Counted from the stretch's first letter, positions 37,713 to 49,063 are shown. The stretch: DNA of 64,000 nt from an uncultured Woeseiaceae bacterium (GCA_964569695.1 CAZMUA010000016.1:5270-69269); one strand, 5' to 3'. Translations and numbers: made by a program. Notes: a model not told the origin generated them from the letters alone.

Positions 37713-39398
37713 ATGCGCACAGGAGCAGAGAGCACTTGGCGAGTAACGTGGCGTAAACCATTCGTACGCCGACTCGCTCTGCTCGGCGCCTTACTCCTGA
37801 TAGTCGCTGGTTCGATGTTGCTGAAGTCTGGGACTATTGCCTTTTGGCAGGTTGCTAGTGGAACGGGACGCCTAGTGATGACGATTGTCGACGATACATC
37901 AGGAGTCTCTACTCCGGTTCGCATTCGGTTGACCAATGCGCAGGGTGAACCTGTCGTCCCGCCGGATAACGCACTCGCCGTGATGTGGGGCCGGTTCGAT
38001 GCGGCAGAGAATTTCGCCTCGTTACCAAATGGTGACTTTTACACGGAAGGTGCGTTTGAGTTAACCCTGCCGGCCGGGATCTATCAGTTAAGGATCTCGA
38101 AAGGGTATGAGTACCTCGAACAGGAACACGAGGTCGTCATTGCGGCGGACGAAGAGGTCTTGGAAACCTACCGGATGGCGCGTTGGGTAGATATGCCGTC
38201 CCGTGGTTGGGTATCAGCGGACGATCACATTCATCTTCGACGGTCGCCACGGGATAACCCGGCCATTCTTGGGTGGATTGCGGCTGAGGATCTGCAGGTA
38301 GGCACTCTCCTCCAGATGGGTGACTTTTGGGCGACGTATTACTCACAGTATGCGTGGGGCCTCGATGGGGTCTATCACGTGGAAGACCGCTTATTGGCGT
38401 CTGGGCAGGAAGACCCTCGGACGCACGAGCGGGGACACACGATCTCATTAGCTGCTGATGACTTCGTACGCCTCGAGGATCCTGCACTCAGCCAGGGTCC
38501 GAGTGGGTACTATTATTATGATCAAGTGTTTGACCGGATTCATGAACTGGGTGGTATGACAGGCTATGCGCACCAAGCCGTCACATTTCATGGCTATCGT
38601 GGTCTGACGCTCGACGTCCTTCGCGATAAAGTCGACTTCTTGGAATTGTTGCAGTTCTGCGCGGCAGACGGGCCTCTCCATACGGACCATTATTATCATT
38701 TCCTCAATCTTGGGTTTGAATTGACCGCAACTGCCGGATCAGATTTTCCTTGGTGTGGTCGGTCTCCGAATAGTGCCGACCCGCGAATCGGCGACGCTCG
38801 CTTTTACGCCTACGTTGGTGATGAGTTCACTTTTGAGACTTGGCGCGAGAGCGTGCGTGACGGGCACACCTTTGTTACCAGTGGTCCGATCGTTGAATTG
38901 ACGGTCAATGAAGCAATGCCTGGTGACCGGGTTGATATCGAATCGGGGTCGGCGCTCAGAATTACTGCGCGCGCTCAAGGGCACGCCACGCAGATTCCAT
39001 TGGAGGAGCTTGAGATTGTGGCTCATGGAGTAGTCATCGAATCGGTGTCAGCTCGCGATCCGAATCAGTCGTCAGAACGTCTTGCGGTGACCATGAGTCT
39101 CCCGGTGGATCACGGTGTCTGGATTGCCGCCCGCACGAGAGCTGGCCCGACGCAAATAGCGCATTCAACGCCAGTGTATGTGACCGTGTCAGGTTCGGGC
39201 TTTCACAGTCCTGACACGCTTGAGGAATATCTTGATTTAAGCGGGCAGTATCTCGATGAACTACAGGAAGAAATTGCTCAGCCGAACGACTCACTCGACC
39301 ATCTAGCTTGGCGAGATCGTGACGGCCTGGAAGAACAGATTGCCGAAACCCGAGAGGTGATTGCAAAACTTCGGCGGGAACTCGGCGACGGAGAATAA
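37713..39398 (+). CDS. Membrane-anchored putative metal-dependent hydrolase (PHP/CehA-like) with an N-terminal beta-sandwich and a C-terminal coiled coil
   Basis: RBS AGGAGG. One N-terminal TM segment. GWVSADDHIHLRRSP, GYAHQ and AGSDFP look like PHP-type metal ligands. The family call is tentative. Confidence 0.4.
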   Translation: MRTGAESTWRVTWRKPFVRRLALLGALLLIVAGSMLLKSGTIAFWQVASGTGRLVMTIVDDTSGVSTPVRIRLTNAQGEPVVPPDNALAVMWGRFDAAENFASLPNGDFYTEGAFELTLPAGIYQLRISKGYEYLEQEHEVVIAADEEVLETYRMARWVDMPSRGWVSADDHIHLRRSPRDNPAILGWIAAEDLQVGTLLQMGDFWATYYSQYAWGLDGVYHVEDRLLASGQEDPRTHERGHTISLAADDFVRLEDPALSQGPSGYYYYDQVFDRIHELGGMTGYAHQAVTFHGYRGLTLDVLRDKVDFLELLQFCAADGPLHTDHYYHFLNLGFELTATAGSDFPWCGRSPNSADPRIGDARFYAYVGDEFTFETWRESVRDGHTFVTSGPIVELTVNEAMPGDRVDIESGSALRITARAQGHATQIPLEELEIVAHGVVIESVSARDPNQSSERLAVTMSLPVDHGVWIAARTRAGPTQIAHSTPVYVTVSGSGFHSPDTLEEYLDLSGQYLDELQEEIAQPNDSLDHLAWRDRDGLEEQIAETREVIAKLRRELGDGE

Positions 39399-39441
39399 TT
39401 TGGTGCGTCGAATTACGTTCGCGAGGCATTAAAGGTGGCGC

Positions 39442-40347
39442 ATGGAACCTGACACAAGACATTTCGGTATCCTGTCAAAAGTTGCTTTCCCGGCGACGAT
39501 GCTAGGTGCTTTTACCGTGAATACCACGCTAGTCTCGATGGGATGGTCGATTCTGGGAGCTTCGTATGTTGCGGTCGTGTTGGCGGCAGCTGCCGTCACG
39601 TGTTTTGAGTTCGTCATTCCCTATGACAAATCCTGGCAACCGCGGTGGACCGATGTAAAGAATGACCTATTGTTCATGGTTACGATTCAGATGGTACTCC
39701 CGCAACTGCTCGGATTGGTGGCGGCATTGACGGCACTTGGATACTTCGAGTCTCTCGATTGGTCGTTCAAGCAAATGTGGCCTAGCCAGTTGCCGTTGAT
39801 TCTTCAAGTAGCTTTGATGCTTTTGACCGCCGAACTGTTTCGGTACCCGCTGCACGTCGCGGCGCATAACACTAAAACCCTGTGGCGACTTCACGCAGTG
39901 CATCATTCACCCAAGAAGCTCTACTGGCTCAATGTTGGGCGGTTTCATCCTGTCGAAAAAGCACTGCAGTATTCGCTCGACACTCTGCCGTTTATGTTGG
40001 TTGGAGTCGGTGGGGATGTTGTTGCTCTCTATTTTCTCTTCTATGCAATCAACGGCTTTTACCAGCATTCCAATGTCGATGTCTGTTACGGGCCTCTCAA
40101 TTATTTAGTGAGTGGACCTGAATTGCATCGTTGGCACCATTCGAAGCTGGTGGATGAATCGAATCGCAACTACGGTAACAACCTGATTGTCTGGGACCTT
40201 CTGTTTGGCACTTGGTTCTTACCAAAACGTATGCGGGTCGGCGAGTTAGGTCTCTTTAATCGTGATTACCCATTGGACTTTGTCGGTCAGATGACGGCAC
40301 CCCTAACCCCAGGTCTTGACAAGCAGTCACCACCTCATGGTCGCTAA
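39442..40347 (+). CDS. Fatty-acid hydroxylase / sterol desaturase superfamily membrane di-iron enzyme
   Basis: N-terminal TM helices. Three His boxes: HVAAH, HAVHH, HRWHH. Confidence 0.8.
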   Translation: MEPDTRHFGILSKVAFPATMLGAFTVNTTLVSMGWSILGASYVAVVLAAAAVTCFEFVIPYDKSWQPRWTDVKNDLLFMVTIQMVLPQLLGLVAALTALGYFESLDWSFKQMWPSQLPLILQVALMLLTAELFRYPLHVAAHNTKTLWRLHAVHHSPKKLYWLNVGRFHPVEKALQYSLDTLPFMLVGVGGDVVALYFLFYAINGFYQHSNVDVCYGPLNYLVSGPELHRWHHSKLVDESNRNYGNNLIVWDLLFGTWFLPKRMRVGELGLFNRDYPLDFVGQMTAPLTPGLDKQSPPHGR

Positions 40348-40378
40348 TACTTTGCTCAATTGTGCACTCTGGGTGCGC

Positions 40379-42028
40379 ATGCAAATCCTTCGGTGGACTC
40401 ATTGGCGACCGTTCGTGCACGCGGCCAAACATCCGGGACAGATTCAGCGAACGTTGTTGCAGCAACTGTTGCGTCGTAACACTACGACGAGATTTGGGCG
40501 TGAGCATCGCCTAAACACAGTGAGAAGCTACGATGACTTTATCGGCGCAGTTCCGGTGCAAACTTATGAAACCCTACGCCCCTATATTGAGGACCAAGAG
40601 CAGACGGGCGAACCGGCGCTCAATATTGCGCAGCCGGTTATGTATGCGAAGACGAGTGGAACGACTGGGCAAGCGAAGTTGATTCCAATACTGCCGGCAA
40701 CCCTCCAGGAACATAAGCGAAGCCAAGCCATCCAATCCTACGTGCAGTTTACGACCGAGCCGCGGGCCTACTATGGACGCTGCGTCGCAATCGTCAGTCC
40801 GGCTGAAGAAGGAACGCTCGACACTGGCACGCCGTATGGATCCACCTCGGGGTTCATGTACCAGAACATGCCGAGACTCGCCAAGGTGAAGTACGTGTTG
40901 CCCTATCAGGTGTTTGAGATCGAAGACTATGACCTCAAGTATCTTCTTATTTTGCGACTGGGTGTTGCATACCGTGATGTGACGCATCTCGCGTGCGCGA
41001 ATCCATCTACCTTGGTTAAGCTGCTTGCGGTTCTTGTAGCCAATCGCACTTCATTGTTGCGCGACATCACGCAGCAGACATTTTCTCGAATCGACGAACT
41101 GCCGGTCGACGTGCAGGCTGTCATTCGTCGACGGTTGGCGTGCATGCCGCGCCGCGTCGCCGAACTGCAGACGATTCTCACGTTGCCAGAGCCGACATTC
41201 GCCGATCTTTGGCCAGAGTTGCAGATGGTCTCTACCTGGACTGGAGGAAGTTGTGGGATTCCGCTGGCACGTGTGCGTCCAACCCTCCCACCGACTGCAC
41301 GCGTGGCCGAGTTGGGTTATTTAGCGAGTGAACTCCGAGGAACATTGATGGTTGACTTGAAGCGGAATATTGGCATTCCAACCATCCATGAAAACTTTTT
41401 CGAGTTTGTAGAACGCGACGATTGGGATGCGGGTCGTCAGGTGTTCCTTACGATTGATCAACTCACAGAGGGCAAGGAGTACTATATTTTTCCAACGACC
41501 GCGACTGGCCTCTATCGCTATTTTATGAATGATATCGTGCGCGTCACCGGGCTGTTTTACAACACGCCGACGATTGAGTTTGTGCAAAAAGGGAAGGGCG
41601 TTACGAATATTACAGGGGAAAAACTGTATGAAAGTCAGGTGATTTCTGCGGTACGTGCCACTGAAAATACTACTGGGTTCGTGTCAGGATTTTTTCTTAT
41701 GTTCGCCGATGCTGTTCAAGAACGTTATCGCCTCGTGGTCGAATGTGCCACGCCGACTGATAACTGGATACAGCAAACAGTGGAATCGGTTGAACGGCAC
41801 CTTATGGCCGGTAACGTCGAATATGCAGCCAAGCGGGCGAGTGGACGCCTGCAGCCACTGGAACTGCTTCCAGTCCGATCCGGAACGGGCGACGCGTATA
41901 AACAGGATTGTCTCAAGCAGGGACAGCGGGAAGGGCAATTTAAGCTGATCGCTCTCCAGTATCAGGCCGACTGCCAGTTTCCTTTCGCTGAGTTCCGGGC
42001 GGACTTAACTACACCCTCGGTAGACTAG
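40379..42028 (+). CDS. GH3-family ATP-dependent acyl-acid amido synthetase homologue
   Basis: N-terminal FG....SYDDF...VPVQTYE.L.PYI followed by YAKTSGTTGQAKLIP. Length ~550 aa. The start is ambiguous: the alternative at 40316 would overlap the upstream gene. Confidence 0.85.
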   Translation: MQILRWTHWRPFVHAAKHPGQIQRTLLQQLLRRNTTTRFGREHRLNTVRSYDDFIGAVPVQTYETLRPYIEDQEQTGEPALNIAQPVMYAKTSGTTGQAKLIPILPATLQEHKRSQAIQSYVQFTTEPRAYYGRCVAIVSPAEEGTLDTGTPYGSTSGFMYQNMPRLAKVKYVLPYQVFEIEDYDLKYLLILRLGVAYRDVTHLACANPSTLVKLLAVLVANRTSLLRDITQQTFSRIDELPVDVQAVIRRRLACMPRRVAELQTILTLPEPTFADLWPELQMVSTWTGGSCGIPLARVRPTLPPTARVAELGYLASELRGTLMVDLKRNIGIPTIHENFFEFVERDDWDAGRQVFLTIDQLTEGKEYYIFPTTATGLYRYFMNDIVRVTGLFYNTPTIEFVQKGKGVTNITGEKLYESQVISAVRATENTTGFVSGFFLMFADAVQERYRLVVECATPTDNWIQQTVESVERHLMAGNVEYAAKRASGRLQPLELLPVRSGTGDAYKQDCLKQGQREGQFKLIALQYQADCQFPFAEFRADLTTPSVD

Positions 42029-43155
42029 TGATGCACCTTGCTCTCTTTCGAGTCGAGATTCCCTTTACGACGACCTTTACCCATAAGTCGGCTAGCCGTG
42101 CTGCGACCCAGAGCGTCTGGGTTGTCGCGCAGACTGGGGAGTTCATTGGCGTTGGCGAAGGGTGTCCCCGTGAGTACGTTACGGGAGAAAGTCTCGTGTC
42201 GGTGCAAGCATTTTTCGAGGAACATTGTGAGTCCCTTTGTCGCACGGTCCAGTCCGTTGCGGACTTGCGTACATGGGTGGACACTCATACGGCAATCATT
42301 GATGTGAACCCGGCAGCCTGGTGCGCGATGGAATTGGCGATGCTGGAAATGTTTGCGCGCCGCGAGGGGGTACCAGTCGAGCACGTCTTGGACTTGCCGA
42401 TTACGACAGGAGTCTTTAAATATTCCGCGATCGTGAGCGATAGCGAGACCAAACAGTTTCGGAGCACGGTCGCACGGTATCGGGCGATGGGGTTCGTCGA
42501 TTTTAAATTAAAACTTTCTGACGACCTGAATCACAACCACGAGAAGATTGAGAGTATGCGGACGGAGCATGAACAAACACCACTCCGGATTCGAGTTGAT
42601 GCGAACAACCTCTGGGACGATGTCGACACGGCGGTGCGAGATCTGAGAGAGTTGGCATGGGATTTCGTCGGTATTGAGGAGCCACTGTCGCCAAACGCGT
42701 TTGGCGACATGCGCAAGATATCGGAGTGTATGGGTTCCCCGATCATTCTGGACGAAAGCTGCCTGCGGGTCGACCAGGTCGCGGCGCTTGCTCGGGATGC
42801 GGAGCGATGGATCATCAATGTGCGTGTGTCCAAGATGGGCGGGCTGTTCCGGTCACTGGCAGTGGTGCAAGCCGCAGGCCAAACCGGCATTCCCGTGATT
42901 GTGGGTGCGCAGGTTGGTGAGACCAGCGTCCTTACACGGGCCGCGCTGATCGTGGCGCGAGCGGCTGGGTCCAATCTCGTGGCGCAAGAAGGAGCCTTTG
43001 GAACGCATCTGCTTCAGACGGACGTCGCGAACCCAGTCCTTATGTTTGGCGAAAGCGGTATCCTCAAGGCTGACGAGTATGGTTTCGCTACCGCCAGCGG
43101 GTGGGGACTCACGTTGCGGCCGACACAAGACTTTGCCGTGAGTTTGTCTGAATGA
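42028..43155 (+). CDS. Enolase-superfamily enzyme, muconate-lactonizing-enzyme subgroup (racemase/epimerase/OSBS-like)
   Basis: KxK DFKLKLS. Metal ligands RVDANN, IEEPL, ILDES. Second catalytic Lys VSKMGG. The GTG at 42028 overlaps the GH3 TAG stop (TAGTG); an ATG at 42031 is the alternative start. Confidence 0.85.
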   Translation: MMHLALFRVEIPFTTTFTHKSASRAATQSVWVVAQTGEFIGVGEGCPREYVTGESLVSVQAFFEEHCESLCRTVQSVADLRTWVDTHTAIIDVNPAAWCAMELAMLEMFARREGVPVEHVLDLPITTGVFKYSAIVSDSETKQFRSTVARYRAMGFVDFKLKLSDDLNHNHEKIESMRTEHEQTPLRIRVDANNLWDDVDTAVRDLRELAWDFVGIEEPLSPNAFGDMRKISECMGSPIILDESCLRVDQVAALARDAERWIINVRVSKMGGLFRSLAVVQAAGQTGIPVIVGAQVGETSVLTRAALIVARAAGSNLVAQEGAFGTHLLQTDVANPVLMFGESGILKADEYGFATASGWGLTLRPTQDFAVSLSE

Positions 43156-43294
43156 CCAACTCAGACGACCGCTGGAGTCATCTTGAAATCCTTGAATGCC
43201 AGCGGTACAGTGCTGAGTGGTCATCGTGGCCGGAGAGCATTGTGCCAACACTGGCTGAACAGTCGCCTAACAGTCGAGCAGCATTTCCAGTCGA

Positions 43295-45280
43295 GTGTGT
43301 CGGAGTCGGGACGAGATAGTGACGAACTGGCACTGGCCCGGATGGATACGTTTCGGCGGGTTCGTCGTGTTGGCGGGTGTTTCTGCGATTACCCTGTACG
43401 CACGCACCTACCAAACCTTTGATCGGGTTCGGGTGCCAGTCATCACCGGCGAGCATCTGCCGGCCGATGGCCTCTTAACCGTATCCCTTCCGGAGGCCCC
43501 AGGCCTCACCGGCCGGCCCACGGCAATCATTGTCCGGTTGCTGAACGCGGCGCGTTCTAGTCGCACCATCACGATTACTTTGAATGAGACAGATCTAACG
43601 CGCGTTGATCTTCGACCAGCGGAGACACGACGGATTGACCTCAGTGTACCCACCGGTGTTGAGTCGGGCGACATGCTTGAGTTGCGTGGTGATGGATCGG
43701 GTTGGGTGCTCTCCGACTTGGAAATCGGCACCGCGCACGGATTTTCTCATGGCCTGTTCAGCCTGGTCATTGTGCCAGGGATCGTAAATCACTACGAATC
43801 CGTTTCCACACTCGGAGCGATGGGCCTATTTGTGGGACTGCTGGTCTTGTCCTGTACTTTGTTCCGCTTCGAAACGCGGGCTTTTGTTCGACGCCTTGAG
43901 ACGAGTCTGATCAGCATTATCGTCGCCTTCTTTTGTCTTATCTGGCTTATCCCGACTGTGTCACCGTACAAGGTTCTGCTTTCCTGGAGTGCGTTGCTCA
44001 TCTGTTTGGGCGTCTTGTATTTACCGGTCGTGATCCCGGGTGTGCAGCGACTGTGGCGCGGGTGCGTGACCCTGTGGCACCTCATGCTCAATTTTTATCA
44101 TGCCAGGAAAAGCAGTCTGACACGGATTGGTCTCAGGACACTCTGTGGTGGTTTGGTTGCACTCTTTCTTGTTTCGGTGAGTGGCTTTTACGCGACCGAG
44201 ACCGGATTTACTTCCCTCATCTTGTTTGGAGAGCGGTACGAGGCGCAGGCATTACCAACGGTAAAAGCCTTGCCGCACTATGTGGACTCATCGCCGGGTT
44301 ACGACGGACAGTTTTATGCGCAGTTAGCCTTGGATCCTTTCTTCCAAGATCCGTTCATTGAACGCGCGATTGACACGTTTTCGTATCGTGCGCCCCGCAT
44401 TCTTTTTTCCTGGACCGCGTTTCTCTTGGGTATGGGGCAACCGTCGTGGATTTTGCAAGCCTATGCGGTCCAGAACATCCTGTACTGGTTCATCTTGGCG
44501 TGGTTGCTGCTGCGTTGGGTGCCACCGGTCACTTTTACCAATGTGTTGTTGTGGACTGGTTGTCTGTTTGGGTACGGTTTGATTTCCTCAGTGCGGCTTT
44601 CACTGTTAGCCGGCCCAAGTTTGTTGCTCTTGGTGTTGGCGATGATAGCGCTTGAGCGGGGCCGACCATGGACGGCCACGGCTGTTCTCGGGCTAGCGGG
44701 CCTTGGGCGAGAAACGAATCTACTGGCTGGCGTCGTGGTGCTCCCTCGCACTCGGCCTGGATTTCGATTGCACGATCTCTTGGTGCCCGTCGCTCGTGGC
44801 GGCGTGGTGGCAATGCCGTTCGTACTGTGGCTCGCGTACCTGTATTGGTCCGACTACGGGGTAGTGCTCTCGTCGGGAGAACACAACCTCGCGCTGCCCT
44901 TGTCGGCCATCATCACTAAGTGGCAGGTGACGCTGTTGGAAATCTGGATTAATCCTTGGTCGGAAACGTTTGCCCGCTTTAGTTTTCTTACTTTACTCAG
45001 CTTAACGATCCAAGCGATCTTTCTCCTCTGGCAGCGCGATTGGACGTCACCGTGGTGGCGGGTGGGCGTTGCGTATGTGGGTCTGATGTGCATTTTGGGT
45101 CCAGCCGTGTGGGACGGGCATCAATTTGCGGCGAGTCGTGTGTTGTTGCCCATGACCGTCGCTTTTAATGTGCAACTTGCCCGGATGGGAGGTCTCTGGC
45201 CACTGGCCGTCCTTGGTAATGTCTCCGTGGTCGCTGGGTTGGAAACGCTCCGCGTGCCATGGCTATGGCACTATCTCTGA
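43295..45280 (+). CDS. Polytopic integral membrane protein of unknown function (more than 10 TM segments, ~150-aa extracytoplasmic N-terminal domain)
   Basis: Long hydrophobic repeats. Conserved-looking loop GYDGQFYAQLALDPF. I recognise no catalytic family with confidence. Confidence 0.5.
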   Translation: MCRSRDEIVTNWHWPGWIRFGGFVVLAGVSAITLYARTYQTFDRVRVPVITGEHLPADGLLTVSLPEAPGLTGRPTAIIVRLLNAARSSRTITITLNETDLTRVDLRPAETRRIDLSVPTGVESGDMLELRGDGSGWVLSDLEIGTAHGFSHGLFSLVIVPGIVNHYESVSTLGAMGLFVGLLVLSCTLFRFETRAFVRRLETSLISIIVAFFCLIWLIPTVSPYKVLLSWSALLICLGVLYLPVVIPGVQRLWRGCVTLWHLMLNFYHARKSSLTRIGLRTLCGGLVALFLVSVSGFYATETGFTSLILFGERYEAQALPTVKALPHYVDSSPGYDGQFYAQLALDPFFQDPFIERAIDTFSYRAPRILFSWTAFLLGMGQPSWILQAYAVQNILYWFILAWLLLRWVPPVTFTNVLLWTGCLFGYGLISSVRLSLLAGPSLLLLVLAMIALERGRPWTATAVLGLAGLGRETNLLAGVVVLPRTRPGFRLHDLLVPVARGGVVAMPFVLWLAYLYWSDYGVVLSSGEHNLALPLSAIITKWQVTLLEIWINPWSETFARFSFLTLLSLTIQAIFLLWQRDWTSPWWRVGVAYVGLMCILGPAVWDGHQFAASRVLLPMTVAFNVQLARMGGLWPLAVLGNVSVVAGLETLRVPWLWHYL

Positions 45281-45342
45281 GCAATGAGGTGCGTTAGTAT
45301 CAGAACGGCACACCGCATGATTCCAAGGAGGATGTTTGACTG

Positions 45343-46227
45343 ATGACGACGAAACAGAATATTGACCCTCGAATCTTTGAACTCTATGACGAGTACTGCC
45401 ATGGGCACATCGAGCGGCGCGAATTTCTTCACCGTGCGGCGGTGATGACCGTTGGTGGTGTATCCGCGCTCTGGATGGCAGAAGCCTTACTCCCTCGATA
45501 TGCCGAAGCGCAGACGATTTCGTTTACTGACTCGCGGATGAAGGGAACCTATGTTGAGTATCCGTCGCCCGGTGGTACTTCGGGCACGATGCGGGGGTAT
45601 CTGGTGCAGCCGACGAGTGAGGGACCGCATCCGGCTGTCATGGTTATTCATGAGAACCGTGGTCTGAATCCGCACATCGAAGATGTTGCACGTCGGGCAG
45701 CGGTGGCTGGTTTTCTGGCACTTGCGCCAGATGGCTTGTCGCCTGTCGGAGGGTACCCTGGCAATGATGATGATGGGCGGACATTGCAGCGAAGTCTCGA
45801 TCCGGCACAACTAGATCAGGACATGGTAAATAGTGCACGGTATCTCAAGGACCACGATCTCTCCACGGGTCGTCTTGGGGCGACAGGTTTTTGCTGGGGT
45901 GGCGGGATGACGAACCGTCTCGCGGTGACCCTTGGTCGTGACTTGGCCGCTGGCGTACCATTTTATGGATCCACTGCGCCGAGTGACGAGGTGTCGAAGA
46001 TCACGGCAGCTTTGATGATCATTTATGCTGGCACCGACCCTCGGATCAATGCGATGTGGCCCGAGTATGAAGCCGCCCTGAAGGCTCACGGGGTGTCCTA
46101 TCAGATGCACATGTTTGAAGGGACCCTACACGGCTTCCATAACAATTCCACGCCGCGTTATAACGAAGCAGCCGCAGCACTGGCGTGGAATCGCACTGTC
46201 GGTTTCTTTCGGGAGCACTTGGCTTAA
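45343..46227 (+). CDS. Dienelactone hydrolase-family protein with a Tat-type signal
   Basis: RBS AAGGAGG. ERREFLHRAAVMTVGG. HENRGLNPHIEDVARR. Nucleophile region GFCWGG. Confidence 0.8.
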   Translation: MTTKQNIDPRIFELYDEYCHGHIERREFLHRAAVMTVGGVSALWMAEALLPRYAEAQTISFTDSRMKGTYVEYPSPGGTSGTMRGYLVQPTSEGPHPAVMVIHENRGLNPHIEDVARRAAVAGFLALAPDGLSPVGGYPGNDDDGRTLQRSLDPAQLDQDMVNSARYLKDHDLSTGRLGATGFCWGGGMTNRLAVTLGRDLAAGVPFYGSTAPSDEVSKITAALMIIYAGTDPRINAMWPEYEAALKAHGVSYQMHMFEGTLHGFHNNSTPRYNEAAAALAWNRTVGFFREHLA

Positions 46228-46291
46228 GCGTGGTTCGTTGGAAACACTTCGTTGCAGTGCCTAGCACTCAACGGTAGACTCGCAACTAATA

Positions 46292-46939
46292 ATGCACATT
46301 CTCGTACTTGCGACACTAAGTACACCACTTCTCGCGCAACCTGATCTTGAGGATTTACGTAGACGTGCGGATGAAGGGTATGTGCGGGCGCAGTACAACT
46401 TGGCCTTGATGTACGACACGGGCCAAGGAGTTCCGGAAGACAACATGGAGGCCGTGCGCTGGTATCGCAAGGCCGCGGATCAAGGGAATGTGAGAGCACA
46501 GAACAACCTTGGGGTGATGTACGACGCTGGTGAGGGCGTGCCAGAAGACAATACAGAAGCGGTGCGCTGGTATCGTATGGCTGCAGAGCAGGGGGACGCC
46601 TCGGCTCAGTACAACCTTGGGGTGATGTACGACACTGGTGAGGGCGTTCCGGAAGACGACACGGCCGCGGTGCGCTGGTATCGCGAAGCTGGGGAGCAAG
46701 GAGATGTAAGAGCGCTGCACAACTTGGGCTTGAAGTACTCCAATGGTCGAGGCGCTCCGCAGGATCGGATGTCGTCATATATGTGGTTTGACATTGTGGC
46801 GTCACGAACCACGGGAAGCTTACGACACGTTGCCATGCTCAATCGCGATCAAGAGAAGGCTTTCTTGACACCTGCCCAAGTTGCTGAAGCGCAACAACTC
46901 GCCCGAGCATGGAATGCGGCACATCCGCGCGAGCCGTAG
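46292..46939 (+). CDS. Exported Sel1-like repeat (SLR/TPR-like) protein
   Basis: Signal peptide MHILVLATLSTPLLAQ. Four consecutive 36-aa repeats of the form A..QGn..AQ.NLG.MY..GeGVPeD...AVRWY. Confidence 0.9.
   Translation: MHILVLATLSTPLLAQPDLEDLRRRADEGYVRAQYNLALMYDTGQGVPEDNMEAVRWYRKAADQGNVRAQNNLGVMYDAGEGVPEDNTEAVRWYRMAAEQGDASAQYNLGVMYDTGEGVPEDDTAAVRWYREAGEQGDVRALHNLGLKYSNGRGAPQDRMSSYMWFDIVASRTTGSLRHVAMLNRDQEKAFLTPAQVAEAQQLARAWNAAHPREP
46361..46792 (+). repeat. Four tandem 108-nt coding repeats (Sel1 units)
   Basis: The strings gcggtgcgctggtatcg and ggggtgatgtacgac recur at a 108-nt period. The repeats also create a long spurious antisense ORF. Confidence 0.85.
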
Positions 46940-47485: not shown

Positions 47486-47501
47486 ATTGAGGAGTGAGAG
47501 A

Positions 47502-48014
47502 ATGCGCGAACTGAAGGCCTTTAACTTCAAGCAATGGATTGACGAGCATCGAGAGTTCCTCAAGCCTCCCGTTGGGAACAAGCTGGTGTTTCAAGATGCC
47601 GAGTTCATCGTGATGGTAGTGGGCGGGCCAAACAAACGAACGGATTATCACTACGACGAGAGCGAAGAGTTTTTCTATCAAGTGGAAGGCGACATTGTAC
47701 TCAAGATCATAGAGAACGACACGCCGGTCGATATTCCGATTCGCGAAGGAGAGATCTTCCTGTTGCCACCCAGAGTGCCACATTCTCCGCAGCGCGGGCC
47801 CAACACCGTCGGCTTGGTCATCGAGCGGAAACGGACCGAGCACGAGAAGGACGGGCTCATCTGGTTCTGCGAGAAATGCCACCACAAACTCTACGAGGAA
47901 TATTTTCATCTAGAGAACATCGAGACTCAATTACCAACGGTCTTTAACCACTTCTATAGCTCGACTGAGCATCGTACGTGTACGGACTGTGGCACGGTGA
48001 TGGCGCAACCGTAG
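47502..48014 (+). CDS. nbaC: 3-hydroxyanthranilate 3,4-dioxygenase
   Basis: ATG at 47502 after GGAG. FNFKQWIDEH...LKPPVGNK...MVVGGPN.RTDYH....EEFFYQ.EGD...GEIFLLP..VPHSPQR. C-terminal Cys4 site CEKC...CTDC. Confidence 0.9.
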   Translation: MRELKAFNFKQWIDEHREFLKPPVGNKLVFQDAEFIVMVVGGPNKRTDYHYDESEEFFYQVEGDIVLKIIENDTPVDIPIREGEIFLLPPRVPHSPQRGPNTVGLVIERKRTEHEKDGLIWFCEKCHHKLYEEYFHLENIETQLPTVFNHFYSSTEHRTCTDCGTVMAQP

Positions 48015-48049: not shown

Positions 48050-49063
48050 ATGATGCTAAAAGTTGATATCCATACGCACATCCTCCCCGAGACTTGGCCC
48101 GATTTGAAGGAGCGCTACGGCTATGGTGGATTCGTGCAACTTGAACAGCATGGTTCCGGGTGCGGGCGCATGTCGATTGACGGTCGAGTGTTTCGAGAGG
48201 TCGGTAAGAACTGTTGGGATCCCAAAGCACGTTTAACGGACTGCGATGAACATGGGGTAGATGTGCAGGTGCTCTCGACTGTTCCAGTGATGTTTAGTTA
48301 CTGGGCCAAGCCCGAGGATGCGCATGACTTGTCCCAACTACTGAATGATCACCTCGCGGGTGTCGTTGCGGATCATCCTCAGCGGTTCGTCGGCTTGGGG
48401 ACCGTGCCGATGCAGGACCCGACTCGGGCGGTTCAGGAACTTGAACGATGTGTGAAGACGCTCGGCATGGCGGGCATTCAGATCGGCACCCATGTCAACG
48501 GCCAAAACTTGGATGATGAACGACTGTTTCCCGTTTTTGAGGCGGCCGAGGCGCTAGGGGCTGCAATCTTCGTGCACCCTTGGGACATGCTGGGGGGTGA
48601 ACGGATGTCAAAGTACTGGCTGTCTTGGCTCGTGGGTATGCCGTCCGAGACCGCGCTCGCGATTTGCGCGATGATGTTTGGCGGCATTTTCGATCGCCTG
48701 CCTCGGCTGCGCGTCGCATTCGCTCACGGTGGTGGGGCGTTTCCTGGTACGGTGGGACGCATCGACCATGGATTCAAGGTGCGTCCCGATCTCTGCGCGG
48801 TGAACGTCGAGATAAATCCACGCGAGCAGTTACGCCGCTTCTATGTCGATGCGCTCGTGCACGATGCCGACGCATTGCTGTCGCTGATCAAGCTATTCGG
48901 GTCGAACCGCGTGGCGCTTGGTACCGATTATCCATTCCCGTTGGGGGAACACGCACCGGGCGCACTAATTGAATCTTTACCATTGGATATGGTGACCCGC
49001 CAGCGGCTGCTCGGTGCCTCGGCACTGGACTGGTTGAATCTTGATCCGATACGATTTTCGTGA
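48050..49063 (+). CDS. nbaD: 2-amino-3-carboxymuconate-6-semialdehyde decarboxylase (amidohydrolase_2 family)
   Basis: [16 protein letters not shown]...[10 protein letters not shown]. Later FVHPWDM and AHGGGAFP motifs match ACMSD. Confidence 0.85.

Follow-up and report, generated by a model that had tools for sequence, protein, structure and literature searches.

A stretch of 64,000 nucleotides (nt) from an uncultured Woeseiaceae bacterium (GCA_964569695.1, CAZMUA010000016.1:5270-69269), referred to here as the window, has a G+C content of about 54% and contains four neighbouring open reading frames (ORFs) on the plus strand, at 39442-40347, 40316-42028, 42028-43155 and 43295-45280. An original prediction, made from the DNA alone, had proposed these ORFs as a four-gene biosynthetic cassette, and all four of them were found at the positions it gave. 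The first gene (39442-40347, 301 amino acids (aa)) encodes an OlsE-like membrane di-iron oxygenase of the fatty-acid hydroxylase superfamily (PF04116, 1e-27), and the second a GH3-family acyl-acid amido synthetase with GH3 N, M and C domains. The third (42028-43155, 375 aa; MR_MLE_C, 1.2e-27) encodes an MLE-subgroup enolase-superfamily enzyme, predicted to be N-acyl-amino-acid racemase/epimerase-like, and the fourth (43295-45280) a polytopic membrane protein of 661 aa without a Pfam match. The short motifs that had been quoted from these genes, YAKTSGTTGQAKLIP, DFKLKLS and VSKMGG, are all present in the window proteins.

The longest ORF of the GH3 gene begins at a TTG codon at 40316. However, the true start is assigned to the ATG at 40337, because the close GH3 homologues all have 562-564 aa; the gene thus spans 40337-42028 on the plus strand and encodes 563 aa. 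This start overlaps the hydroxylase gene, with its stop codon at 40345-40347, by 11 nt, which is tighter than the gap of at most 31 nt originally described. The GH3 stop codon TAG (42026-42028) overlaps the GTG start of the MLE gene at 42028, as had been noticed, and an alternative ATG lies at 42031. A gap of 139 nt separates the MLE gene from the 661-aa ORF. The first three genes are packed far more tightly than chance would explain. A promoter and terminator scan of positions 39000-46500 was uninformative, with counts equal to the shuffle background.

The genomic context was analyzed in the 80 best genome loci encoding GH3 relatives, which were searched with the window proteins by tblastn and in which GH3 identity falls to 42%. 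The hydroxylase, GH3 and MLE genes are adjacent, collinear and on one strand in 77 of these 80 loci, so the synteny of GH3 and MLE-type genes, which the original prediction had named as a check, is kept. Exceptions include one locus that is cut short upstream of GH3 (L023) and one with only 1.4 kb of upstream sequence, which has no hydroxylase match (L072). The closest GH3 protein, with 95% identity, comes from a Tara-derived metagenome-assembled genome (MAG) labelled 'uncultured Acidobacteria' (L002), followed by Vicinamibacterales MAGs with 71-74% identity. The loci with the three genes are distributed over about 15 phylum-level lineages. These comprise Acidobacteriota, Gemmatimonadota, Planctomycetota, Nitrospinota, Latescibacterota, Alpha-, Beta- and Gammaproteobacteria, Bdellovibrionota, Thermodesulfobacteriota, Poribacteria, Fibrobacteria, Bacteroidota/Balneolota, Verrucomicrobiota, Leptospiria, Binatia and Sericytochromatia. 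Among the loci, L046 comes from Candidatus Nitrotoga sp. BS. Over 68 loci, the hydroxylase, GH3 and MLE proteins have correlated pairwise distances (r = 0.73-0.81). The GH3 clade itself counts 1023 proteins at E <= 1e-30 in a representative library.

Gene fusions point in the same direction. The hydroxylase and GH3 genes form a single stop-free frame in 38 of the 80 loci, and fatty-acid hydroxylase (FAH)-GH3 fusion proteins of 840-900 aa are abundant in protein databases. In one protein of 1207 aa (P0388), FA_hydroxylase, GH3 and MR_MLE_C are all fused and intact, and the linker that joins the C-terminus of GH3 to the N-terminus of the MLE part is ordinary. An apparent GH3-MLE fusion (P0067) was discarded as a frameshift or assembly artefact, since its GH3 C-terminus is garbled ahead of the MLE part, and GH3 and MLE genes share one frame in none of the 80 genome loci examined. 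Because the synteny is kept across phyla and is joined by FAH-GH3 fusions and one triple fusion, we conclude that the hydroxylase, GH3 and MLE-type genes genuinely belong together in one functional unit. The window holds the minimal form of this widespread, self-contained three-enzyme module. The proposed four-gene cassette therefore stands for these three genes and fails for the 661-aa membrane protein, which lies beside them only in L002. None of the observations named beforehand as fatal (missing synteny, placement of the enolase member in the OSBS/menC clade, or loss of the GH3 adenylation motifs) was made for the trio.

The GH3 protein matches the three Pfam domains PF03321, PF23571 and PF23572 with E-values of 2.6e-52, 1e-17 and 1.8e-14. 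The corresponding scores of 178.4, 64.4 and 54.8 bits exceed the cut-off of 23.6 bits and place it in the family. Based upon the motif definitions for JAR1 and OlsH, (S/T)SGT(S/T)xGxxK, YxxSE and a GLYRYxxGD-like motif (PMC12493201), all three nucleotide motifs were found as T106SGTTGQAK114, Y328LASE332 and G391LYRYFMND399. An alignment of 12 diverse orthologues shows the key residues of these motifs to be invariant, and the adenylation motifs are accordingly retained. Residue S107 aligns with the essential S115 of OlsH, the mutation of which abolished activity (PMC12493201). Bacterial GH3 enzymes had been described as essentially uncharacterised; this no longer applies, since OlsH was characterised in 2025 as a GH3-like N-acyl-ornithine synthetase that uses free fatty acid and ATP, without coenzyme A (CoA) or acyl carrier protein (ACP) (PMC12493201).

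NCBIfam scores were taken as a proxy for the relation of the trio proteins to OlsH and OlsE. OlsH is the sole NCBIfam match of the window GH3, and a very weak one: the protein reaches 86.8 bits against the equivalog cut-off of 620 (NF052613), with the best stretch at residues 36-239, and falls outside that family. Because of this low score, the window GH3 is assigned to a GH3 clade distant from OlsH. All planctomycete OlsH genes stand in an operon with the alpha/beta-hydrolase O-acyltransferase OlsI (PMC12493201), and no operon of the OlsI type was found here, as no alpha/beta-hydrolase partner is conserved with the trio. The relatives with solved structures in PDB are plant GH3 enzymes, at about 1e-16 and with low identity.

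Other GH3 contexts and architectures were also observed. A Longimicrobiales MAG possesses a second GH3 paralogue convergent with the trio (L012, 10900-12471, minus strand; L083, 10423-12534, minus strand). This paralogue has 703 aa, is about 30% identical and adjoins GtrA-like and flavin-containing monooxygenase / lysine-ornithine-oxygenase-like genes, which makes it a different GH3 context. Three further proteins of the GH3 family have 720 aa (P0475), 1086 aa (P0423) and 1017 aa (P0443); one of them is a GH3 with a C-terminal cyclic-nucleotide-binding domain, and two are FAH-GH3 fusions with an extra N-terminal extension of 170-200 aa.

The hydroxylase scores 97.5 bits against the PF04116 cut-off of 31. 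It displays the histidine boxes of this family of polytopic membrane proteins (HX3-4H, HX2-3HH and HX2-3HH) as H138x3H142, H151x2HH155 and H229x2HH233, which, together with H169 and H209, are invariant in 42 orthologues. Against the OlsE equivalog (NF052566) it reaches 188.6 bits, below the cut-off of 475, and is not a member, although the alignment runs over the full length, from protein residues 11-289 to model positions 6-284 of 293. OlsE is the only NCBIfam family matched, and this holds for all 42 hydroxylase orthologues, with a best value of 1.4e-63. The assignment to the superfamily that includes OlsE is thus confirmed, with OlsE as its only NCBIfam relative.

The MLE enzyme possesses the complete set of catalytic residues of its subgroup, namely the KxK motif on strand 2, the D/E/D metal ligands and the second lysine on strand 6. 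Residues K160, K162, D191, E217/E218, D242 and K269 are invariant in 49 orthologues and align to K160/K162, D191, E219, D244 and K268 of Bacillus subtilis YkfB. Residues H19, R24, R48, Y50, T52 and E54 of the 20s and 50s loops are invariant in the family as well. In a search of PDB with the family profile, the best matches are the N-succinyl Arg/Lys racemase 2p88 (2e-45), 3jva (1.5e-42) and 1jpm (5e-39), with dipeptide and Ala-Glu epimerases at 1e-42 to 1e-36. Entry 2p88 is the Bacillus cereus N-succinyl Arg/Lys racemase (PMC2948282). An AlphaFold2 model, predicted with an alignment of database homologues, has a mean predicted local distance difference test score (pLDDT) of 92.6. The top Foldseek matches of this model are 1jpm, 3q45, 3jva, 2p88 and 2zc8, with TM-scores of about 0.8, and the putative muconate cycloisomerase 2pgw follows close behind these racemases and epimerases. 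Sequence identity to the racemase and epimerase relatives is about 20-23% (about 21% for the N-succinyl/N-acyl amino acid racemase).

No NCBIfam equivalog cut-off, those of all MLE-subgroup families included, is reached by the MLE enzyme. Scores for the L-Ala-D/L-Glu epimerase / dipeptide epimerase equivalogs are 50.2 against 343 and 47.2 against 500 bits, and those for the four o-succinylbenzoate synthase (OSBS) models 65.6 against 200.65, 51.9 against 288, 49.5 against 130.55 and 33.3 against 259 bits. Residues D321 and D323 of YkfB, which presumably bind the alpha-ammonium group of the dipeptide, align to G322 and F324, which are invariant in the MLE family; the alignment confidence is modest in this segment. 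With that role assumed for the two aspartates, the replacement fits an N-acyl substrate rather than a dipeptide. From its relatives in sequence and structure, the MLE enzyme is predicted to be N-acyl-amino-acid racemase/epimerase-like.

An identity as OSBS/MenC was rejected, since the scores lie far under the cut-offs and the OSBS entries in the PDB search appear only at about 1e-14 or weaker, compared with 2e-45 for 2p88. In addition, no men genes were found among the window ORFs of at least 200 aa, as had been reported. The original description of the enolase member thus holds: it keeps both catalytic lysines and the metal ligands, and it is closest to N-succinyl-amino-acid racemase and dipeptide epimerases rather than to OSBS/MenC. 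A broader proposal is that GH3 conjugates a non-lipid acid, which could be aromatic, isochorismate-like or hormone-like, and that the MLE enzyme performs OSBS-like or muconate-type chemistry. Plant GH3 enzymes being the only solved GH3 relatives would suit this proposal, as would the weak matches of the OSBS models. We nevertheless regard it as decidedly improbable: all four OSBS models remain far below their cut-offs, no men or isochorismate genes occur in the window or are conserved with the trio, and the substrate is probably lipophilic, given that GH3 is fused to a polytopic membrane hydroxylase.

Since the nearest characterised relative of each member acts on an N-acylated amino acid, a joint pathway can be outlined, in which the trio assembles an N-acyl amino acid (lipoamino acid) and modifies it further, on the cytoplasmic side of the membrane. 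As homology to OlsH and the plant GH3 enzymes suggests, GH3 would use ATP/Mg2+ to adenylate a free carboxylic acid, probably a fatty acid. It would then attach the acyl group to an amino acid through the alpha-amino nitrogen, leaving the alpha-carboxylate of the resulting N-acyl amino acid free. The OlsE-like oxygenase may hydroxylate this lipid, either on the headgroup, as in the OlsE precedent on ornithine C4, or on the amide-linked acyl chain; this step is suggested by OlsE homology and by the fusions, and in the window the oxygenase is translationally coupled to GH3. With its two lysines and Mg2+ site, the MLE enzyme would remove the alpha-proton adjacent to the free carboxylate, which would most likely epimerise the headgroup to the D-form; dehydration or cyclisation of a hydroxylated headgroup is a less likely outcome. 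That a polytopic membrane hydroxylase is conserved in fusion with GH3 supports a lipophilic substrate for the trio. We assign a probability of roughly 0.55 to this overall model, which depends on homology and gene context, and a lower one to each of its details taken singly.

Several observations weigh against the model. All three proteins are far under the equivalog cut-offs (86.8/620 for OlsH, 188.6/475 for OlsE, and likewise for every MLE-subgroup family), so the identity of the substrate is not transferable from these relatives. Two loci (L054 and L070) have no MLE gene despite enough downstream sequence. The trio has no conserved companion gene of the OlsI, OlsA or OlsB type; without a conserved O-acyltransferase of the OlsI/OlsA type, the product may not be a two-chain membrane lipid. 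Moreover, the two-lysine active site of the MLE enzyme is also compatible with dehydratase or cycloisomerase chemistry, and the cis-3-hydroxy-L-proline dehydratase and muconate cycloisomerase models score like the racemase models.

This last point gives rise to the alternative that the MLE enzyme is not a racemase. After hydroxylation or desaturation of the headgroup, abstraction of the alpha-proton would be followed by elimination or cyclisation, yielding either an N-acyl dehydro-amino acid or a cyclic headgroup (a lactone or a proline-like ring). Members of the MLE subgroup with the same KxK/D/E/D/K set do include dehydratases and cycloisomerases, and the NCBIfam scores of the window enzyme are 62 bits for cis-3-hydroxy-L-proline dehydratase, 82 for muconate cycloisomerase and 86 for the racemase DgcA. 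The obligatory hydroxylase partner would also supply a leaving group for elimination. However, the closest structures in the profile search belong to racemases and epimerases whose substrates are N-acyl amino acids or dipeptides, and the hydroxylation known from OlsE takes place at C4 and not beta to the carboxylate, so we consider a non-racemase role unlikely.

Racemisation could also serve an end other than lipid synthesis. GH3 might N-acylate an amino acid, the MLE enzyme racemise it and a hydrolase release the inverted amino acid, in a stereo-inversion or salvage route similar to the pathway of N-succinyl-amino-acid racemase. Candidates for the hydrolase would be a CocE/NonD protein at other loci and the CehA or DLH protein in the window. 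The N-succinyl Arg/Lys racemase as best PDB profile match of the MLE enzyme is in line with such a route, as are a CocE/NonD hydrolase linked to the trio in 19 loci and the hydrolase genes that flank the trio in the window. The CocE/NonD hydrolase is absent from most trio loci, however, and the flanking hydrolases of the window are not conserved with the trio. Acylation at the expense of ATP followed by hydrolysis would be costly, and the invariant, often fused membrane di-iron hydroxylase would have no role in the pathway. The stereo-inversion route is therefore improbable, and synthesis of a tailored N-acyl amino acid is preferred.

Within the lipoamino-acid model, the product may be an undescribed lipid class, either a hydroxylated N-acyl-D-amino acid or a dehydro-/lactone-type derivative; we put this forward as a tentative and rather doubtful possibility. 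If it is true, the MLE protein would be the first member of the enolase superfamily with a lipid substrate, as none is known to us so far. Such a lipid would occur in about 15 phyla, mostly in uncultured marine, sediment, soil and sponge-associated lineages, and could be part of the membrane or act as a surfactant or a diffusible signal. Lactonisation of a gamma-hydroxylated headgroup could even give an acyl-homoserine-lactone-like molecule without a LuxI-type synthase.

Recurrent neighbours of the trio were identified by a stricter neighbour clustering of 81 loci. In 52 of these, including the Vicinamibacterales relatives, the gene immediately upstream of the hydroxylase, on the same strand, encodes a small membrane protein that is polytopic and has about 140 aa (examples at L001 8663-9127, L022 6626-7120 and L082 7544-7972). 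A Pfam search with this protein gave nothing significant, and it has no NCBIfam family. It is likely the fourth component of the system in most lineages. In the window and in L002 the small membrane protein is not detectable, and its position in the window is taken by the CehA/McbA gene.

A CocE/NonD (Peptidase_S15) esterase-fold hydrolase, matching Rhodococcus cocaine esterase at 1e-102, adjoins the trio in the 19 loci mentioned above, which come from several phyla, and is on the same strand in 15 of them. Its gene is found sometimes upstream and sometimes downstream (L029 5220-7025, L011 5373-7088, L059 10768-12495, L082 11718-13490). It has no homologue in the window and no OlsI match, and might correspond in function to the alpha/beta-hydrolase OlsI or be an esterase for the product. 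In Poribacteria, a second, divergent OlsE-like FA_hydroxylase paralogue is placed between the MLE gene and the CocE/NonD gene (L029 4321-5142, L032 4928-5746, L034 5681-6499). In a Gracilimonas sediminicola MAG (NZ_CP175953.1, L071 4872-7092), a P450 is encoded directly upstream of the FAH-GH3 fusion together with a 261-aa protein that carries an acyltransferase domain of the 2-oxoacid-dehydrogenase type, possibly as an extended lipid-tailoring operon. The CocE/NonD hydrolase, the second OlsE-like paralogue, the P450/acyltransferase-like genes and the small membrane protein all fit lipid tailoring. Eight proteobacterial loci (L020 3368-4117, minus strand; L021, L022, L026, L042, L057, L063 and L080) encode a Cro/C1-type helix-turn-helix protein of about 250 aa, divergent and upstream of the trio, which is a candidate regulator.

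The other genes around the trio in the window were analyzed in the same loci. A CehA/McbA-family metallohydrolase gene (37713-39398, plus strand; NCBIfam NF038032, 199 bits) ends 43 nt upstream of the hydroxylase gene on the same strand, and a DLH/YghX hydrolase gene (45343-46227) lies beyond the 661-aa ORF. These two genes and the 661-aa gene accompany the trio only in L002, the locus with the 95%-identical GH3. The DLH/YghX protein as an OlsI analogue and CehA as a partner were rejected, both being restricted to this MAG, which is regarded as the same species.

The 661-aa protein had been proposed to install or export the product. Its gene is on the same strand 139 nt downstream of the trio and is again found beside it in L002, which speaks for a fourth member. 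In the other 79 loci, however, including the Vicinamibacterales with 71-74% GH3 identity, no copy lies closer than about 8 kb to the trio, and two homologues with 44-51% identity (P0127 and P0139), on large Vicinamibacterales-type contigs, are found in contexts without GH3, FAH or MLE genes. The protein scores 122.7 bits against the cut-off of 150 for the NCBIfam family AZOBR_p60025 'cell surface glycopolymer formation'. Its AlphaFold2 model (pLDDT 78) displays one N-terminal transmembrane helix, a beta-sandwich at residues 46-161 with weak matches (E about 1e-3) to CBM35/CBM6-like carbohydrate-binding modules (CBMs), and a C-terminal membrane domain of about 12 helices without a PDB relative. 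Many homologues have about 385 aa and cover only the C-terminal 55-60%. Judging from the model, the protein looks like a glycopolymer-formation protein with a CBM-like domain. Synteny, homologue contexts and the hints from fold and family led us to reject the 661-aa gene as a cassette member, and a role in installing or exporting the trio product is very improbable. We conclude that the 661-aa protein, the DLH hydrolase and CehA are neighbours only and stand outside the trio system. Further downstream, a 3-hydroxyanthranilate 3,4-dioxygenase gene (47487-48014, plus strand; PF06052, 6e-64) adjoins an Amidohydro_2 gene (48050-49063, plus strand), and the two are possibly a fragment of a kynurenine / 2-nitrobenzoate-type pathway.

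The module occurs widely, has clear limits, carries no annotation and can be tested directly. GH3-dependent aminolipid synthesis in bacteria was first shown only in 2025 and in a single planctomycete; here, one large GH3 clade is isolated and tied by synteny and fusion to an OlsE-like hydroxylase and a racemase-type enzyme. The trio leads to the testable prediction of a hydroxylated, possibly D-configured, N-acyl amino acid. If true, this would denote a new lipid or lipoamino-acid family, provide a function for a large MLE-subgroup family lacking one, and offer an enzymatic route to chiral N-acyl amino acid surfactants that needs neither ACP nor CoA. The natural FAH-GH3 and FAH-GH3-MLE fusions, such as P0113 and P0388, are ready-made expression constructs. 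Specialists would not expect a racemase-type enzyme in a lipid pathway, and its function here is proposed from homology and context.

Among known systems, the closest is the ornithine-lipid pathway of Singulisphaera acidiphila with OlsH (L0DAW6), OlsI and OlsG (PMC12493201). Both systems contain a bacterial GH3 protein with the three nucleotide motifs, for which ATP/Mg2+-dependent N-acylation by free fatty acid, independent of OlsB/OlsF, is expected in the window as well, and both are small operons with lipid-tailoring enzymes. They differ in the partners, which are an OlsE-like hydroxylase and an MLE-type enzyme in the trio, and OlsI and the methyltransferase OlsG for OlsH. The original prediction had presented a route unrelated to OlsB as new, yet an OlsB-independent GH3 route was demonstrated in 2025 for OlsH/OlsI (PMC12493201). 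The same study reported that bacterial GH3 homologues are widespread (thousands) and may use other amino acids, and left them unstudied (PMC12493201). An enolase-superfamily or racemase partner is mentioned neither in that paper nor in a 2026 review (PMC12493201, PMC12971839). Our literature searches found no description of the hydroxylase-GH3-MLE trio, the coverage of the literature being incomplete and such an absence not proof.

OlsE of Rhizobium tropici and Agrobacterium, which hydroxylates C4 of the ornithine-lipid headgroup (PMC12971839), shares with the window hydroxylase the polytopic di-iron FAH superfamily, a full-length alignment and the histidine boxes. In contrast, the window protein, at 188.6 against 475 bits, is not an OlsE orthologue, and it is fused to GH3 in about half of the lineages. 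To our knowledge, a GH3 fusion is unreported for OlsE. The plant GH3 enzymes JAR1/GH3.11, GH3.12 and GH3.15 display the same three-domain architecture and nucleotide motifs, and the third motif of the window GH3, GLYRY...D, is nearer to the plant sequence than the OlsH motif is. Unlike the window protein, they are soluble hormone-conjugating enzymes without hydroxylase or racemase partners, and they are related to it at about 1e-16 with low identity. The MLE enzyme has the fold, the KxK motif, the D/E/D Mg2+ ligands and the second lysine in common with BC0371 (2p88), the epimerases 1jpm, 3jva and 3q45, and the N-acylamino acid racemase (NAAAR) 2zc8. Each of these relatives removes the alpha-proton from an amino acid that is N-acylated and has a free carboxylate, the class of molecule that a GH3 enzyme makes. 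The window enzyme is set apart from them by an identity of only about 20-23% and by the membrane hydroxylase and GH3 context, for which we know of no precedent in the MLE subgroup. In comparison with these systems, GH3 aminolipid synthesis and OlsE-type hydroxylation are known already; new are the obligatory, fused three-enzyme architecture and the involvement of the MLE subgroup.

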